From the NCBI RefSeq assembly GCF_024502345.1, contig NZ_JALDNN010000001.1: a DNA stretch of 64,000 nt. One strand, 5' to 3'. How positions within the stretch are numbered: the first letter of the stretch is position 1; each line of letters begins with the position of its first letter. The translations under genes were made by a program, and so were the position numbers. This DNA is from Escherichia coli. GTDB lineage: Bacteria > Pseudomonadota > Gammaproteobacteria > Enterobacterales > Enterobacteriaceae. Of the stretch, positions 1,776 through 7,823 are shown in pieces. The notes below the pieces were generated by a model. It did not search any database. It saw only the letters and a program-made list of their open reading frames with translations, and had not been told where the DNA came from.

Positions 1776-2105
1776 TCAGTTCTTTTTCCCGGCCAGCATA
1801 TCAATCATCATGGGATAAATCTTTTCGCACTTCATGCCCGGATTCTGTACTGCGAAACTCCACCCCTCGTCCATCGCCGCAGCAACCTCTGTTGTTGAGG
1901 CTATGGGCCAATCGCTCACGGTGTCGTAGACTTTACTGATAGCCTTGTTCTTATCCATGCCGGTGTGTTGCTGCTGGCACATTCTGACCATTACTTCTGC
2001 GGCCTGAGCAGGCTGGCTTGCCGGGTAAGCAGCCAGCGCCGGGGCGGATGTCGTTGTGATGAGCAGTGCGGTAATAATATGCTTCTTTATTGTGTTACCC
2101 TTCAT
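1776..2105 (-). CDS. small secreted protein of unknown function (N-terminal signal peptide)
   Basis: 109-aa ORF with hydrophobic N-terminus ending ...PALAA; start overlaps stop of upstream ORF (2102-2105), suggesting an operon. Confidence 0.55.
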   Translation of the reverse strand: MKGNTIKKHIITALLITTTSAPALAAYPASQPAQAAEVMVRMCQQQHTGMDKNKAISKVYDTVSDWPIASTTEVAAAMDEGWSFAVQNPGMKCEKIYPMMIDMLAGKKN

Positions 2106-2620
2106 TGAACCTGAATGCCCTGAACCGGGCTATTGTCCCATGTCATCGGTCGGTCTTCCGGAATTGCCGGGGCACTGTTAGTGGCCGGTTTATCAACAAC
2201 AGGTTTCGCGCTGGCGGGAAGGTCATCTGGTGAAATAACTCGGGTTATCACACCCATCTTCTCACCAACAGCGGAGTTCATCTGATCGCAGAGGGTTTTT
2301 ATCTGGAGCCGGATACCGCTCTGGTTTATTCCTTCGCTTTTGAATTGCTGCTCAAGAATAAAGCGGTCCTGAAGGGAATGGTAATAGTTAATATTGTCCT
2401 TCGTTAATATCATGATGTTGCCGGTATTATCCTGATAGCGATTGCTGCGGATAAGTTTATCCAGTGCGGTTAAAGCCTCATCGCCAGTGTAACCATACTG
2501 GTGGCAGGTATTCAGGGTGGCATAAGCCTCATACAGCCCCTGCAAATTTTCTGCGGGGAGTGTTTTTGCCCCGGCACAACCTGAAAATGCCAGAAGCAAC
2601 ATAGCAGCGGTTTTCCTCAT
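2102..2620 (-). CDS. putative lipoprotein of unknown function
   Basis: 172-aa ORF; N-terminus MRKTAAMLLLAFSGC resembles a signal peptide with lipobox cysteine. Confidence 0.55.
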   Translation of the reverse strand: MRKTAAMLLLAFSGCAGAKTLPAENLQGLYEAYATLNTCHQYGYTGDEALTALDKLIRSNRYQDNTGNIMILTKDNINYYHSLQDRFILEQQFKSEGINQSGIRLQIKTLCDQMNSAVGEKMGVITRVISPDDLPASAKPVVDKPATNSAPAIPEDRPMTWDNSPVQGIQVQ

Positions 2621-2672
2621 TTTAGGTAGTCTCCTTTCATTGACGTTTCATCATCCGTCATGCGCGTTACAG

Positions 2673-3200
2673 TTAACGGATGCGGATATTTCTGGTGATT
2701 TTTCCATGTGTCAACGGGCTGCGTTTTTCCACAAAGAAATACGCGACATTGAACGCGGATTTGCGATGGTTGCCCCGGCCCAGAGAAGGCCAGCTCCTGA
2801 AGGACTCAATTTGTTCTTCGGTATAGGGTGTGTCAGAAAAATCGAACAGTACAAGCAGGGCTTTGCCGTCATACTTCATCAGTTTCTTCACCTCCGTGCT
2901 GTTGACGGAGGCTGACAGCGCAGAACGGGCAGCTCCCGGCTTACGGACGGCGAACTCTACAGCCACATCGTCAATGACGAAATCAATGTAGCCATGTCCG
3001 GACAAACTGCCCGGTAGTTTTCCCCTAACCTCAGGTGAGAGGCTGTCAGCAAACCAGCCCAGTAGGTAGCAACGCACCAGCGGTAATAGCTCCCGCTCAT
3101 TGCATTCGTTAAGGCGCAGGGTTTTGACAAATGCTTTCCGGTAAAGGGAACTAAAAAGGTACTCAAAGCATTCCGTTACTTCAGTAATAGTGGTCGCCAC
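2673..3200 (-). CDS. hypothetical protein, 175 aa
   Basis: ORF follows the Ner-like gene after a 12-bp gap on the same strand; no recognised family. Confidence 0.5.
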   Translation of the reverse strand: MATTITEVTECFEYLFSSLYRKAFVKTLRLNECNERELLPLVRCYLLGWFADSLSPEVRGKLPGSLSGHGYIDFVIDDVAVEFAVRKPGAARSALSASVNSTEVKKLMKYDGKALLVLFDFSDTPYTEEQIESFRSWPSLGRGNHRKSAFNVAYFFVEKRSPLTHGKITRNIRIR

Positions 3201-3212
3201 TCTATGCTCCCT

Positions 3213-3491
3213 TCAGCTTTCCTTTTTGACAGACCTGCCTGCGTAGCGCTCAGGCCAGATAGTTTCGGGCGTGGTATCCAGTGCCTCAGCAATAATCTTT
3301 TCTGCCCGTGGATAGTGGCGCTCAAAAGCGTTACTCAGTGTCCTTGAGGCCAGCCCGTGATGCCGGGAGAGAGCAGACAGGGAAAGTCCCCGCTTGTGCA
3401 GGGCGGCGACAATATCAGCCCGGTGCCAGTTAACAGCACTTCCCTTACTTCGCTTTTTTTGCGAATCTGTTGAGTTACTCAATGTATTCAC
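3213..3491 (-). CDS. Ner/Nlp-family (phage Mu Ner-like) HTH DNA-binding regulator
   Basis: 92-aa protein; segment WHRADIVAALHKRGLSLSALSRHHGLASRTLSNAFERHYPRAEKIIAEAL...ETIWP resembles Ner/SfsB family. Confidence 0.7.
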   Translation of the reverse strand: MNTLSNSTDSQKKRSKGSAVNWHRADIVAALHKRGLSLSALSRHHGLASRTLSNAFERHYPRAEKIIAEALDTTPETIWPERYAGRSVKKES

Positions 3492-3603
3492 TCCGGGTTG
3501 TTAGTACTGGAGATATTAAAAGCGAACAAAGGGAAGTTATCAAGTTCCTTTTGTGGTTATTTGCGCTCATTTAACTAACGCTTTGATAAGAGGTGAAATT
3601 TTT

Positions 3604-3984
3604 ATGGGCAGTGAACAGATGACTGACCCCTGCGTTACCGGAATGACGGAGAGTGGGGGGTGGCTTACAGCAGAGCAGTTTGCCGGAATGGAAGGGATGC
3701 CGGGCACAGCGAAAGGGGCGCGACTACGTCTGGAAAAGCTCACTGCTCTGCACCCGGAAATCCGCCGCAAACGCACCAGTGGGAAGGGGTTTCTGTACCA
3801 TATCAGCGCGGCAGGGATGGCACTGAAAAGTGAGCGGGATGCGACAGATACCTCAGCAGACGAGCAGCTCAACCTCTGGATACAGCTGTTTCGCACAATG
3901 AAACCGGCCTCCAGGGATAAACTTTTGCAGCAGGCTCTGGCTCAGGTTGCGAGGGACCTGACTAAAGGAGACGTTAACCAGTAA
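3604..3984 (+). CDS. hypothetical protein, divergent from the Ner-like gene
   Basis: Track ORF 3553..3984; start moved to ATG 3604, which is preceded by AGAGGTG RBS. No recognised family. Confidence 0.45.
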   Translation: MGSEQMTDPCVTGMTESGGWLTAEQFAGMEGMPGTAKGARLRLEKLTALHPEIRRKRTSGKGFLYHISAAGMALKSERDATDTSADEQLNLWIQLFRTMKPASRDKLLQQALAQVARDLTKGDVNQ

Positions 3985-4067: not shown

Positions 4068-4691
4068 GTGGCAGTCATTGCGTACTCAGCCACTGTATTA
4101 ACCCATCCTGGCTTGTTCACAGCCATCACTTTTCCTGGAATAGCAACAATGACACTTCCCCGAGACGTTCATGCGTCCCGTCAGGGCCAGCATGACTACT
4201 TATGTGGCATCTACAGCTTGATTAACACCCTCAGTTACCTTTATGACGGCAGAGTACGGCGAGAAAAATTAATGTACCGCCTGCTTAGCAGCTATAAGCG
4301 ACGATGGGATTTATTTGATCTCCTGACGCTCGGTCTGGACGAGGAACAAATGGACCACCTGATTGGTGATGTTCTCCTGAAAGGGCATTACGCCCGGCAT
4401 TATCCCCTGAATTTTCATACCCCCTTCCGTTACCGCTCCCTGCGCAGCCGACAGATACTCAGCGACATCAGCGACTGGCTGGCGTTGCCGGAGAACCAGG
4501 CGCAGCGCGTGGTGATTCTGGGCACATCCTGGCACTGGTCTGTGGTAGTCCGTACCGATGCTACCCGGCTGTTCCTGTTTGACAGCTTGGGAATACGCAG
4601 CCAGCGCAGGGATACGTTCTCCGTACAGCCGGAGCTGAAGCGCCACACGCTGCTGCCGGACGCCATCTATTTCGTCGAACGTGAGTTCTGA
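4068..4691 (+). CDS. hypothetical protein with candidate Cys/His dyad (possible papain-fold or C39-like peptidase); start uncertain
   Basis: 207-aa ORF; motifs DYLCGIYSL and SWHWSVVV resemble cysteine and histidine segments of C39-type peptidases. Weak, by-eye call. Confidence 0.4.
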   Translation: MAVIAYSATVLTHPGLFTAITFPGIATMTLPRDVHASRQGQHDYLCGIYSLINTLSYLYDGRVRREKLMYRLLSSYKRRWDLFDLLTLGLDEEQMDHLIGDVLLKGHYARHYPLNFHTPFRYRSLRSRQILSDISDWLALPENQAQRVVILGTSWHWSVVVRTDATRLFLFDSLGIRSQRRDTFSVQPELKRHTLLPDAIYFVEREF

Positions 4692-4713
4692 CCCCTGCAG
4701 AAGGAGACTGACC

Positions 4714-5202
4714 ATGACTTTTACCGCCTGCGACCAGAGCGGTTTTTACCGGACCACCGGGCCGGTGTCCCGCGAGGATATTATCCGCTTTGCCCATACG
4801 CTGCTCTCCCGCCGGTTTCGCAATCGCCGAAAAATTACGTCCTCTAATGATGTTCACCAGTGGCTGGTGCTGAAGCTGGCAGAGGACACCCGGGAGAGCT
4901 TCGGAATGATACTGCTCTCGCAGCAGCACCATCTTCTGGGCTACCACATCCTGTTCACCGGGACGCTGAACCAGACCATGGTTTACCCCCGCGAAATTGT
5001 CGCTCTGGCGCTGACGCATCATGCAGCCGCAGTGATACTGGTCCATAACCACCCAAGCGGTGAGCCTGAGCCGAGCCAGGCCGATAAACTCATTACCCAA
5101 AAAATTACCGATGCGCTTTCACTCCTTGATATCCGCGTCGTGGACCACCTTATTGTGGGTGGTGACGATGCTTACTCCTTTGCAGAACACGGCCTGCTCT
5201 GA
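4714..5202 (+). CDS. RadC-like JAB/MPN-domain protein (YeeS/YfjY/YkfG family)
   Basis: C-terminal HNHPSG...D JAMM-like motif and ...DHLIVGG...SFAEHGLL tail typical of CP4-prophage RadC-like proteins. Start at ATG 4714, preceded by AAGGAG. Confidence 0.75.
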   Translation: MTFTACDQSGFYRTTGPVSREDIIRFAHTLLSRRFRNRRKITSSNDVHQWLVLKLAEDTRESFGMILLSQQHHLLGYHILFTGTLNQTMVYPREIVALALTHHAAAVILVHNHPSGEPEPSQADKLITQKITDALSLLDIRVVDHLIVGGDDAYSFAEHGLL

Positions 5203-5289
5203 GTGACCTGGTTTAATACACATTAACCACGGTAATCCACGTTCGCCTTATCCCTTCATTTTTAAACTGTAAATACTGAGGTTTTAACC

Positions 5290-5721
5290 ATGAACATCAA
5301 TGCCGTTATTCAGCCGGCAGGCTTTGTGCTGCCTGTCAGTCTGCAGCTGTTCGACATGCTGATGGTAGAAGCAGGCGAAAAAACCGCTAGTAAACATCGC
5401 ATTACCGCCGTTACGCTCAATTTCCGGGACCCGAACTACAGCGCGGAGCGGGGCGGCTATCACCCGGTGGAAATTCGGCTGGTTCACCAGGGGGATGAAT
5501 GGTGCCTGGACTACGCCACCGATTTTGGCTATGTCGGCAACGCTTACCCCGAGCTTGAGAAAATCATCGATATCAGTTGGTCGCAGGGCTACGTCTGGCA
5601 CTGCCGTACAGGGGATTTGTCCCCGTCTGAGGCGCGGGCGCTCTACACCCTGTGGGAGCGCAACTTCCTGAGCTATCACGCCAGTGGGGTCTACATCACC
5701 CGAGTGCTGTGGGAAAGCTGA
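5290..5721 (+). CDS. hypothetical protein in antitoxin position upstream of the CbtA-like toxin
   Basis: 143-aa ORF with GAGG RBS; no similarity I can recognise to CbeA/YeeU antitoxins, so function is inferred from position only. Confidence 0.45.
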   Translation: MNINAVIQPAGFVLPVSLQLFDMLMVEAGEKTASKHRITAVTLNFRDPNYSAERGGYHPVEIRLVHQGDEWCLDYATDFGYVGNAYPELEKIIDISWSQGYVWHCRTGDLSPSEARALYTLWERNFLSYHASGVYITRVLWES

Positions 5722-5864: not shown

Positions 5865-6482
5865 ATGAAAAAACAACCTGTCTCACTGGCTCGGGAGACA
5901 TCGTGCTGCCTGTCGCCTGCTGATGTCTGGCGTACCCTGCTGACTCACCTGCTGGCACAGCACTATGGGCTTGCCCTCAACGATACGCCGTTTGGTGAGG
6001 AAGGCACCATTCAGGCGCATATTGACGCTGGTGTTACCATGATGGAAGCCCTGAATACCGTCGTTGAGAAGTATGATCTGGTACGTACAGATCGGGACAG
6101 TGTGGGCCTTCACCCTGGCTCCTCATTGATTACTGCTATTGATGTTCTCCGGGCGCGAAAAGCCACCGGGCTCCTGAAGCGGGGAGCATATCAGTTCGTG
6201 AGCCACATCACGCAGGGGCGCAGGCCCGCCCCGGACAGTGCAGTAACCGCCGGGCCCTCCGCGCCGTTACCATTGCTACCATCGGACACATTCACCCGAC
6301 AGGACGCGGTGTCCATTATGGCGGTGTATGACTGTGTGGCTATTGAGGATGACCAGCATACCCATTTCCGTCTGGCAATACGCGATGCTGAAGGTCAGCT
6401 TATCTGGCGGGCCTGGAACTTTGAGTCCGGAGCCGGGCAGGGGCTTAACCACTATCTGCAACGTTATGGTGTGAAAAAATGA
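5865..6482 (+). CDS. CbtA/YeeV-family type IV toxin homolog with ~80-aa C-terminal extension
   Basis: N-terminal ~125 aa (…VWRTLLTHLLAQHYGLALNDTPFGEEG...LVRTD...ILRARKATGLL...) resembles CbtA/YkfI/YpjF toxins; ORF continues to 205 aa. Confidence 0.65.
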   Translation: MKKQPVSLARETSCCLSPADVWRTLLTHLLAQHYGLALNDTPFGEEGTIQAHIDAGVTMMEALNTVVEKYDLVRTDRDSVGLHPGSSLITAIDVLRARKATGLLKRGAYQFVSHITQGRRPAPDSAVTAGPSAPLPLLPSDTFTRQDAVSIMAVYDCVAIEDDQHTHFRLAIRDAEGQLIWRAWNFESGAGQGLNHYLQRYGVKK

Positions 6483-6576: not shown

Positions 6577-7524
6577 ATGACCTCGAACCGCAAGGGCAGG
6601 CGTGCGGAAACTGTGCGCCAACAAAACGTCCCCACCATCAACCCGGCACAGCTTTGGCTGGCAGGTCTGACGCGCGCCGGGCGCAAGGGGATGCAAAGCC
6701 AGCTTCGGCGCTGTGCCGGTATCCTGCTTCCGGGCTCGGATACCGACAGCTACCCCTGGCAGATGCTGAACTACACGGGGATGATGCAGATCCGTGCGCA
6801 CATGCTGGATGCTGGCTATGCTGTCGCGACTGTCAACATGGCACTGTCGGCGCTGAAATCGGTTGCCTTTAGCGCGTTCAGTATGGGTCTGATGGATGCT
6901 GACACGCTTGCGCGCATACGCAACGTCAGGCGGGTCAGTGGTGACGGTTGTAGGCTGGGGCGTGCGCTGGCCCGCCATGAAATCCGGTCAATGCTGGCGG
7001 CGGCAGCGACGTTCTCCACTGTGCGCTGTCAGCGCGAACGGGCCATTTTGTTGCTTCTGTGTGGTGCCGGGCTGCGAGCGGGTGAGCTGGTTGCCCTGAA
7101 TGCGGAGGATATTGACGTTGCCGCAGGGATTGTCTGGGTCAGGGAGGGAAAAGGGCGCAAAAGTCGTGAAATTCACCTTGCCGCGAAGGTATGCACGCAG
7201 CTGCGCCGTTGGCTGAAGTGCCGTGGAGACCATGAAGGGCCGTTGTTCAGTCGTATCAGCCGGGCAGACCGGCCAGGGCCACACAGGCTTACCACGACTG
7301 GATTGACGGGGCTGTTGGCACAGCTACGCGAAGCCGCTGGCGTGGACTATTTCACCCCGCACGACCTCAGACGAACGTTCATCACACAGTTGCTGGAGCA
7401 GGGAACCGACCTCAACGTGGTACGCCAGCTTGCGGGGCATGCCGATATCGCCACAACCACCCGATATGACTACAGGGGCCGGGGTACGCAGGACAGAGCC
7501 TCCAGGGCTTTCTGTTGCTGGTAA
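6577..7524 (+). CDS. tyrosine-type site-specific recombinase (phage integrase family)
   Basis: 315-aa ORF with GAGGA RBS; C-terminal catalytic-domain signature HDLRRTF...LAGH...TTTRYDY (R-H-R-Y residues). Confidence 0.8.
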   Translation: MTSNRKGRRAETVRQQNVPTINPAQLWLAGLTRAGRKGMQSQLRRCAGILLPGSDTDSYPWQMLNYTGMMQIRAHMLDAGYAVATVNMALSALKSVAFSAFSMGLMDADTLARIRNVRRVSGDGCRLGRALARHEIRSMLAAAATFSTVRCQRERAILLLLCGAGLRAGELVALNAEDIDVAAGIVWVREGKGRKSREIHLAAKVCTQLRRWLKCRGDHEGPLFSRISRADRPGPHRLTTTGLTGLLAQLREAAGVDYFTPHDLRRTFITQLLEQGTDLNVVRQLAGHADIATTTRYDYRGRGTQDRASRAFCCW

Positions 7525-7823
7525 ATCTTCATGGGGTGGGGGATGGCCTTCGTCACCTGCTGATTAAATTCACCAGAGGGTCCCGGAGATATTTTTGATG
7601 CCCCAAAGGCACGTCCAGGGCGGGCTCAGTGCTATGGGGAGGCCGGGAAAGTACGACCAACTCACCACCCCTGCTGAATGACACTATCGTACTTCGCGGC
7701 GCGGAGAGTATAACTTGGTAGCTGAGTATTTCTCAGAGCGATTAAAGTAGTTGTCTGTATGCATGTAGCGTCGGGAAACCATGAAACTAAACTCTGAATT
7801 CATTTAGCTGAATTTGCAGGCAA

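Follow-up and report, generated by a model that had tools for sequence, protein, structure and literature searches.

A four-gene array in an Escherichia coli genomic island joins an EnrR-like regulator to a compact protein of predicted PD-(D/E)xK fold

The closest described relative of the system considered here centers on EnrR (ETAE_0051; PDB 7F9H and 7F9I), a protein encoded within genomic island GI2 of Edwardsiella piscicida. EnrR binds AT-rich palindromes in competition with H-NS, is present at about 29,000 copies per cell, and gives its strongest chromatin immunoprecipitation (ChIP) peak at its own promoter, and an in-frame deletion of its gene permits normal growth (Ma et al., Nucleic Acids Res 2022, PMC9023278). 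Nucleoid-associated antagonism of H-NS and autoregulation are known only for the EnrR proteins of E. piscicida and Salmonella (PMC9023278). In GI2, enrR has as neighbors integrases, transposases, 'DNA repair' genes, and uncharacterized phage-like genes, and the same paper leaves the downstream genes uncharacterized; EnrR has been studied so far as a virulence regulator, and its operon partners have been overlooked. In this work we consider a 64-kb stretch of E. coli chromosomal DNA (the window, to whose full length all positions refer), in which four genes on the minus strand, from 3482 to 1776, begin with an enrR-like gene. The second encodes a protein of 175 amino acids (aa), here called p175, and the last two encode exported proteins of 172 and 109 aa. 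We consider it moderately probable that these genes constitute an operon that EnrR autoregulates and that expresses, along with interchangeable periplasmic cargo, a nuclease directed at foreign DNA. The regulator, the predicted fold, and the type of island are all of known kinds, and p175 alone is new.

Three other systems bear comparison. In phage Mu, the repressor gene c is transcribed leftward and Pe, then ner, then A and B rightward, so that c-type and Ner-type proteins are encoded divergently across a short control region, as they are here. The pipolin-type cores (PMC11551731) and the integrase/RadC/helix-turn-helix islands (PMC12595487), which the island in the window resembles, are defense islands borne by integrases and devoid of transfer genes. 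Lastly, among the BamHI-like type II endonucleases (BamHI, OkrAI, BstYI, and BglII), OkrAI is similar in size to p175.

All of the open reading frames (ORFs) described were present in the window at the coordinates of Table 1. Genes 1 and 2 are separated by 12 bp and genes 2 and 3 by 52 bp, and genes 3 and 4 overlap by 4 bp, the sequence ATGA containing both the start of the 109-aa gene and the stop codon of the 172-aa gene. Genes 2 and 3 are each preceded by a GGAG-type ribosome-binding site. Relative to a variant of the island 91% identical to it in other E. coli, the ratios of nonsynonymous to synonymous substitution (dN/dS) are 0.08, 0.06, 0.18, and 0.14 for genes 1 through 4, and because these values are so low, all four evidently encode proteins under purifying selection. 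The first-pass annotation of this DNA, made from the letters alone, had described four same-strand genes with short gaps or overlap, headed by a Ner-family protein and ending with two exported proteins, and ORFs, spacing, and dN/dS agree with that description. Co-oriented, closely packed runs of four genes are statistically ordinary in bacteria. A scan for promoters and terminators called no internal promoter-like site and no convincing terminator-like site within the operon, and this, with the tight spacing, makes it plausible that the four genes are cotranscribed. Searches against Rfam and for tRNA found no RNA family and no tRNA feature.

The product of gene 1 matches the Pfam family HTH_35 (PF13693) with a score of 97.5 bits against a cutoff of 25 (E = 4.3e-28), PHROG 769 (E = 1.5e-31), the structure of Mu Ner (1NEQ, E = 2.3e-24), and, best of all, EnrR itself (7F9H, E = 2.8e-38), with which it shares 60 of 84 residues (71%). 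A start at TTG 3482 fits both the alignment with the N-terminus of EnrR and the PGAP annotation. His29, Leu35, Arg40, and Arg47, the residues of EnrR named as DNA contacts (PMC9023278), are identical in the gene 1 product, and the K/R-rich N-terminal extension is kept as well. What had been called a Ner-family DNA-binding protein is therefore more precisely a member of the EnrR family, and, judged by its sequence, gene 1 is an ortholog of this already characterized regulator. It was rejected as an ortholog of SfsB, since its score against the SfsB/Nlp equivalog NF007670 (81.3 bits) falls below the cutoff of 150; it is merely related to the chromosomal SfsB. By homology, the product of gene 1 would bind AT-rich DNA, autoregulate its own promoter, and be able to antagonize H-NS genome-wide. 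The virulence role and the antagonism of H-NS belong to EnrR, however, to which gene 1 is likened from sequence, and it is in the same way that we infer EnrR-type autoregulation at this locus.

The protein encoded directly downstream is harder to place. p175 has no match in Pfam, NCBIfam, PADLOC, or PHROGs, and neither single-sequence nor profile searches against PDB sequences returned anything. Searched exhaustively, 1.84 billion cluster representatives yielded only 110 clusters related to p175, composed mostly of stand-alone proteins of 165 to 185 aa. An AlphaFold2 model, built from an alignment of 66 sequences (pLDDT 95.7, pTM 0.91), has its secondary structure in the order helix-strand-strand-strand-helix-strand, which is the alpha-beta-beta-beta-alpha-beta core of the PD-(D/E)xK superfamily, and from this model p175 may confidently be assigned a fold of the restriction endonuclease type. 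E57, D73, E82, E103, K106, and D120 are near-invariant over the 66 sequences, which extend down to 27% identity to the p175 of the window. A nuclease-like patch of acidic residues and lysine had been put forward in the first-pass annotation as a weak reading; the predicted structure makes more of it than was claimed, since GYIDFVIDDVAVEFAVRK forms the beta2-beta3 hairpin of the predicted fold and carries D73 and E82. The weak matches found by Foldseek are largely of the same class. Pfam searches with the 66 family members gave scattered sub-threshold matches to PD-(D/E)xK families (PDDEXK_9, Tox-REase-9, and UPF0102, in one member each), and in the longer or fused members no informative extra domain. 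To judge from the model, p175 is likely to be a nuclease.

Comparison with BamHI goes little further. By eye, the ID-F/V and EF-x of strands beta2 and beta3 in p175 resemble PID94VY and ME111FE113 of BamHI, in a register that hhalign does not support (the BamHI sequence used was identical to 1BAM). Because the profile comparison was null, any relation of p175 to BamHI is at the level of fold only. The BamHI-like enzymes differ from p175 also in that there is no detectable sequence homology and in that the third catalytic position of p175 is Ala, and restriction enzymes are usually less conserved across phyla than is p175. No methyltransferase is adjacent to p175 in any locus examined, the methylase of the island being part of a type I system some 9 kb distant, and p175 was rejected as the endonuclease of a type II restriction-modification system for want of an adjacent cognate methyltransferase.

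On the other side of the regulator, facing the operon across 121 bp, is a divergent gene whose 126-aa product matches PHROG 310, representing the N-terminus of Mu-type transposases (8.9e-8), and PHROG 7148, a repressor (1.8e-5). By BLASTP it matches the Mu repressor c (Repc) over 28 N-terminal residues (7e-5) and MuA over a short N-terminal segment (0.02), and the aligned segment has the form W-x-T-x-E-x(6)-GMPGT-x-x-G. The gene (3604-3984), which has a strong Shine-Dalgarno sequence, is real, and the intergenic region is conserved over 14 aligned copies, which come from the window, from one E. coli variant, and from 12 further loci, most of them in other genera. The earlier suggestion that the divergent gene shares its control region with the operon is thus borne out. 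The conserved blocks of the alignment take in a promoter-like element, an inverted repeat, and both ribosome-binding sites. The promoter-like element, on the minus strand upstream of enrR, consists of TTGATA (3543-3538), a 17-nt spacer, and TTTAAT (3520-3515); a consensus promoter scanner did not call it, and its -10 sequence lacks A at position 2. An inverted repeat of the type GGAAC-N7-GTTCC lies over the -35 sequence in several loci. In the window, a repeat search of 3470-3620 found one weak inverted repeat, spanning the entire region, and nothing else.

On the map of Mu, c and ner diverge across the early control region, and the window has the same gene order. Because the pair formed by the c-like gene and enrR copies this order, and because the divergent gene has a c-type domain, the module is phage-derived, and the pair is a borrowed Mu-type c/ner switch. 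The statement in the first-pass annotation that this is not a phage module must be given up to that extent. The correspondence has limits: c of Mu is 196 aa in length, whereas the c-like protein of the window is 126 aa and matches only the N-terminal DNA-binding motif, and where Mu has A after ner, the window has p175. A Mu-like prophage is ruled out, as the regulator is followed not by transposase genes A and B but by p175 and the exported proteins. The four genes would then be the Ner-side transcription unit of a Mu-type divergent switch, a c-like repressor facing a Ner-like regulator, and chromosomal islands of one family, found in Enterobacterales and Aeromonas, would have this switch as their conserved regulatory core.

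The extent of this family was assessed from 30 species loci, drawn from roughly 100,000 scanned genomes, and 9 loci from assemblies, all of them searched for every protein of the window. The 22 informative enteric and Aeromonas loci have a common backbone: a second integrase, RadC, a 180-aa protein, DUF2787, one or more regulators, and p175. The c-like gene and enrR are present in 14 of the 22, together in every case (14/14), and in these loci enrR ends 3 to 12 bp before p175 or overlaps it, the overlap occurring in L030 and L037. In seven others, a divergent XRE-type HTH_3 repressor on the opposite strand replaces the pair, and one locus is rearranged. p175 stands directly after the switch whatever the type of regulator, Ner in 14 loci and XRE in 7. 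Among 5,426 complete E. coli genomes, 633 carry enrR with p175, always on the chromosome, and the four-gene version specific to the window is found in 40 genomes. Outside the enteric bacteria, p175 is solitary in 11 informative contexts, including Geobacter, Nitrosomonas, Salinisphaera, Novosphingobium, Desulfobacteraceae, and Pasteurellaceae. Its neighbors there include the toxin-antitoxin genes HicAB, TumE, MazE, and HigB, as well as a type IV restriction enzyme, GajB-like and NERD-UvrD helicases, a BrxH-like helicase, HNH proteins, and an integrase.

The four genes, then, are not a conserved set. The co-occurrence anticipated by the first-pass annotation holds for the regulator and p175, which are found together widely in Enterobacterales, but not for the 172-aa and 109-aa genes, which are restricted and elsewhere give way to unrelated exported proteins, and not beyond the enteric bacteria, where p175 is alone.

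The arrangement of a small DNA-binding gene immediately 5' of a nuclease-fold gene, 12 bp apart here and overlapping in L030 and L037, is what one might expect of a toxin-antitoxin or addiction module that stabilizes the island, with the helix-turn-helix protein neutralizing or repressing a nuclease toxin, and homologs of p175 elsewhere do neighbor toxin-antitoxin genes. However, p175 has no conserved partner in Geobacter, Nitrosomonas, Salinisphaera, Novosphingobium, Desulfobacteraceae, and others, and in seven loci the regulator has been exchanged for an XRE-type protein on the opposite strand. Since p175 occurs without EnrR or Ner in the 11 non-enteric contexts and the 7 XRE-type islands, it is independent of EnrR, and this argues against an obligate toxin-antitoxin pair; the obligate pairing that defines type II systems is not found between enrR and p175. 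The viable deletion of enrR points the same way, in that the E. piscicida mutant grows normally (PMC9023278) and that species carries p175 with downstream genes of the ~119-aa and ~111-aa types described below. Furthermore, EnrR is a global DNA-binding protein and not a dedicated antitoxin. For these reasons, an addiction module seems to us the most improbable of the explanations considered.

Beyond p175 lie the two exported proteins, for neither of which was a known family or fold found. In the 109-aa protein, the signal peptide is of the classic kind and ends in ALA↓AY; the protein has 31 homologs, nearly all named from Enterobacteriaceae (one entry is also named Enterococcus). The 172-aa protein has 8 homologs among 5.8 billion proteins, and a further one, 50% identical and with an extra C-terminal domain, in Aeromonas. 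Except for this Aeromonas homolog, both genes are confined to E. coli and near relatives. The lipobox reported for the 172-aa protein is there, in PROSITE-style form (A-F-S-G-C15), in the allele of the window and close alleles, but the label of lipoprotein fails for the family: Cys15 is Tyr or absent in orthologs of 72%, 49%, and 37% identity, with P0122, P0128, and the Aeromonas protein among those that lack it, and an AxA↓K/N signal-peptidase-I site is conserved among orthologs. Because the site is conserved and Cys15 is not, the status of the protein as a lipoprotein is allele-specific and uncertain. Two Cys residues (C39 and C111) and the C-terminal tail PEDRPMTWDNSPVQG are invariant in the family. 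The tail (2102-2170), predicted to be disordered, is kept even in the homolog of 37% identity, and its sequence resembles that of a short linear motif by which a periplasmic protein might bind a partner. The helical core has no informative structural neighbor.

The position occupied by these genes is more regular than its contents. Of the 20 loci with downstream sequence, 18 have an exported product encoded immediately after p175, or 19 if a lipoprotein missed by the crude detector is counted, and these first genes fall into distinct families. In other genera, in E. coli EC958, and in E. piscicida, the slot holds a Cys-rich secreted family of ~119 aa and a lipoprotein family of ~111 aa, which profile-profile comparison aligns with the exported proteins of the window in the signal peptides only. 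E. piscicida thus has p175 followed by exported proteins, as here, but those two genes are of other families. The slot may be either an envelope 'moron' insertion hotspot or the site of a functionally required exported pair, and genes 3 and 4 would encode disulfide-bonded periplasmic proteins in a cargo slot directly after p175.

Perhaps p175 and the exported pair are parts of one envelope-to-cytoplasm system, for instance one coupling superinfection exclusion to breakdown of the injected DNA. Such a system would account for the persistence behind p175, in the majority of enteric loci as well as in EC958 and E. piscicida, of a secreted protein and a lipoprotein despite replacement of the proteins themselves, with the window alike but for its unrelated proteins, and the short gaps and the ATGA overlap of genes 3 and 4 are in keeping with it. 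Nonhomologous replacement would follow equally from a cargo or 'moron' hotspot, however, and outside enteric islands exported proteins do not consistently follow p175. In some loci, moreover, other genes (FtsK-gamma-like and membrane proteins) lie between the members of the pair or take their place, and the exported proteins offer no known family or fold in its favor. Such a unified system appears rather unlikely, and we prefer to regard the exported proteins as interchangeable cargo.

The island that carries these genes is about 20 kb in length and is inserted between mutS and ygbA. The window starts inside it, and a P4-type integrase adjoining mutS lies beyond the left edge. The region is 99.9% identical to that of strains KMi029, MSB1_9D, and others, and the 91%-identical variant occupies the same site. 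A complete copy of IS5 (162-1356, with a transposase ORF at 194-1210 and a 4-bp target duplication) interrupts a gene for a 294-aa hypothetical protein just past the 3' end of the operon; the gene is intact in KMi029. Beyond the repressor, the backbone consists of the 180-aa gene (4149-4691), RadC/JAB (4714-5202), and DUF2787 (5290-5721), after which come a CbtA/DUF905 remnant and, at 6577-7524, a second tyrosine recombinase. Its synteny is kept in about 20 enteric loci and in EC958, a strain of sequence type 131 (ST131), where the same backbone adjoins dhaR (L043, record 1,349,787-1,361,114). The cargo includes type I restriction-modification genes in the lineage of the window and, in EC958, an ABC-three-component system together with a retron Ec67-family reverse transcriptase/endonuclease. 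In the annotated island stretches examined, there was no sign of transfer genes. It would seem characteristic of these islands to carry tyrosine recombinases and anti-phage defense cargo.

With the islands of PMC11551731 and PMC12595487 they share two tyrosine recombinases, DUF2787, RadC, and variable defense cargo. However, no piPolB polymerase is annotated in the island, as read in the lineage of the window and in EC958, integration is next to mutS or dhaR and not a tRNA or tmRNA gene, and neither paper describes the c/ner-p175 module. The resemblance to E. piscicida is again partial: EnrR there too belongs to an island with integrases, RadC, and uncharacterized phage-like genes, but the host here is E. 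coli and the island adjoins mutS.

In the mechanism we propose, p175, which starts 12 bp downstream of gene 1 in a tight spacing kept across genera, would be a metal-dependent endonuclease that attacks incoming DNA while sparing the chromosome of the host, a defense-type nuclease encoded by a single gene. An endonuclease against foreign DNA is our best guess as to its role. Its catalytic activity and its part in defense we infer, and the structural and synteny parts of the proposal, resting on gene structure, homologies, fold, and patterns of replacement established by the comparisons above, are much more certain than the defense role. The identity of 64-73% between the p175 of E. coli and those of delta- and betaproteobacteria indicates recent horizontal spread. 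p175 was found in none of 50,697 phage records, which we count as neutral with respect to a defense role, and in 4 plasmid matches, from records of large non-mobilizable plasmids. The literature, queried by protein accession, returned no match.

Several considerations weigh against this proposal. The canonical Lys of (D/E)xK is replaced in p175 by Ala84, so that the protein could be catalytically dead or mechanistically unusual; in the motif E82-F-A-V-R86 a conserved basic residue stands two positions past Ala84, and K106 lies in the next helix. No sequence link connects p175 to any nuclease family (hhalign against BamHI gave a probability of 0.09), and Foldseek comparison of the model with the PDB found nothing below E = 0.02. 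PADLOC-DB v2 has no match for p175, the regulator, or the 109-aa protein, and one at chance level (E = 0.022) for the 172-aa protein. At 64-73% identity, the E. coli and Geobacter/Syntrophobacteraceae proteins are unusually alike for products of a defense gene, and the proximity of p175 to defense genes may merely mirror shared residence in variable hotspots. As for regulation, the product of the divergent gene has no match in Pfam, including the model for the Mu DNA-binding domain, and the published EnrR consensus AATAAATNATTTATT is absent from the local control region at up to 3 mismatches. At the same threshold it has 6 matches in the window as a whole, a count not above chance.

The replacement of the motif Lys by Ala84 might be taken to mean that p175 is not an enzyme at all, but a DNA-binding partner or accessory of EnrR with a nuclease-derived fold, acting perhaps in nucleoid shaping or counter-silencing, with the exported proteins as unrelated passengers. 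The abundance of EnrR, about 29,000 copies per cell (PMC9023278), fits this idea, since strong expression is probable for any gene coupled to it, and this argues against a promiscuous nuclease. Against it, E57, D73, and E82, potential metal positions, are near-invariant down to 27% identity, which is more typical of an active site, and a partner of EnrR would hardly be expected in 11 non-enteric contexts and 7 XRE-type islands that have p175 without EnrR or Ner. We think a non-enzymatic role unlikely, if less so than an addiction module or a single system with the exported proteins, and continue to favor a nuclease.

If so, one could go further and see in p175 a new, compact (~175 aa), single-gene PD-(D/E)xK defense nuclease with a noncanonical active site of the form D...E-x-A-x-R, spread horizontally from Enterobacterales to Geobacter, Nitrosomonas, and Desulfobacteraceae, and placed in enteric islands under an EnrR/Mu-type switch, with interchangeable periplasmic exclusion proteins, such that EnrR would primarily control an anti-invader module. 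In this full form the suggestion is speculative and, on present evidence, doubtful. Apart from it, enrR heads a conserved module, whose regulator and p175 are also in pandemic ST131, and its constant partner is an uncharacterized nuclease-fold protein without a Pfam family. If p175 is active and able to discriminate foreign DNA, a very small single-gene family would be added to those of defense, and its role would link an H-NS-antagonizing regulator to island-encoded immunity. If it is inactive, a restriction-enzyme fold would have been recruited to another role related to DNA. Either way, the advance in biology is incremental, not field-changing.

Table 1. Positions of the four-gene array, its control region, and the adjoining backbone in the window
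Feature	Position	Strand	Remarks
enrR-like gene (Ner/HTH_35 family)	3213..3482	-	89 aa from TTG 3482; longest ORF from GTG 3491
p175 (gene 2), 175-aa protein of predicted PD-(D/E)xK fold without sequence family	2673..3200	-	candidate catalytic residues E57, D73, E82, E103, K106, D120
172-aa exported protein	2102..2620	-	allele with lipobox Cys15; family with AxA↓K signal-peptidase-I site, C39, C111, C-terminal PEDRPMTWDNSPVQG
109-aa secreted protein	1776..2105	-	signal peptide ...APALA↓AY; conserved C43, C93; dN/dS 0.14
Divergent control region	3483..3603	.	121 bp; promoter-like elements, inverted repeat; 14-copy alignment
Divergent 126-aa gene, DNA-binding domain of Mu repressor-c/MuA N-terminal type	3604..3984	+	PHROG 310/7148, BLASTP
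Repressor-side conserved backbone	4149..5721	+	180-aa gene, RadC/JAB, DUF2787; Pfam, synteny

Some lesser features of the islands may be recorded. The 180-aa protein of the backbone (4149-4691, plus strand) accompanies RadC and DUF2787 in all enteric loci and has no family match; its sequence QGQHDYLCGIYSL ... HWSVV ... FDS resembles a Cys-His-Asp peptidase of the papain/C39 type. The ORF at 5865-6482 (plus strand) matches the CbtA toxin over residues 1-111 and DUF905 over residues 137-205, and PGAP divides it into a truncated CbtA pseudogene and a DUF905 gene downstream. Missing here is the antitoxin gene YeeU, which the KL53 variant has.

Elsewhere, two of the XRE-type islands (L019, 5772-5951, and L022, 5757-5960) have in the position of enrR, directly upstream of p175, a Cys-rich ORF of 59-67 aa with a duplicated motif, C-x-Y-C-G ... 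G-Q-P-C-K-K-S-P-T, that is zinc-ribbon-like. Small FtsK-gamma-like proteins (IQRxFRIGYNRA) are encoded downstream of p175, at about 6880-7740, in the enteric islands L017, L018, L022, L029, L030, and L032. In a genome of Pasteurellaceae (L038, 6965-8131), a longer p175-like ORF (listed at 321 aa) precedes the gene for a 388-aa protein with FtsK/SpoIIIE and FtsK-gamma domains, which has an SspH-like match in PADLOC, and mutS comes next.

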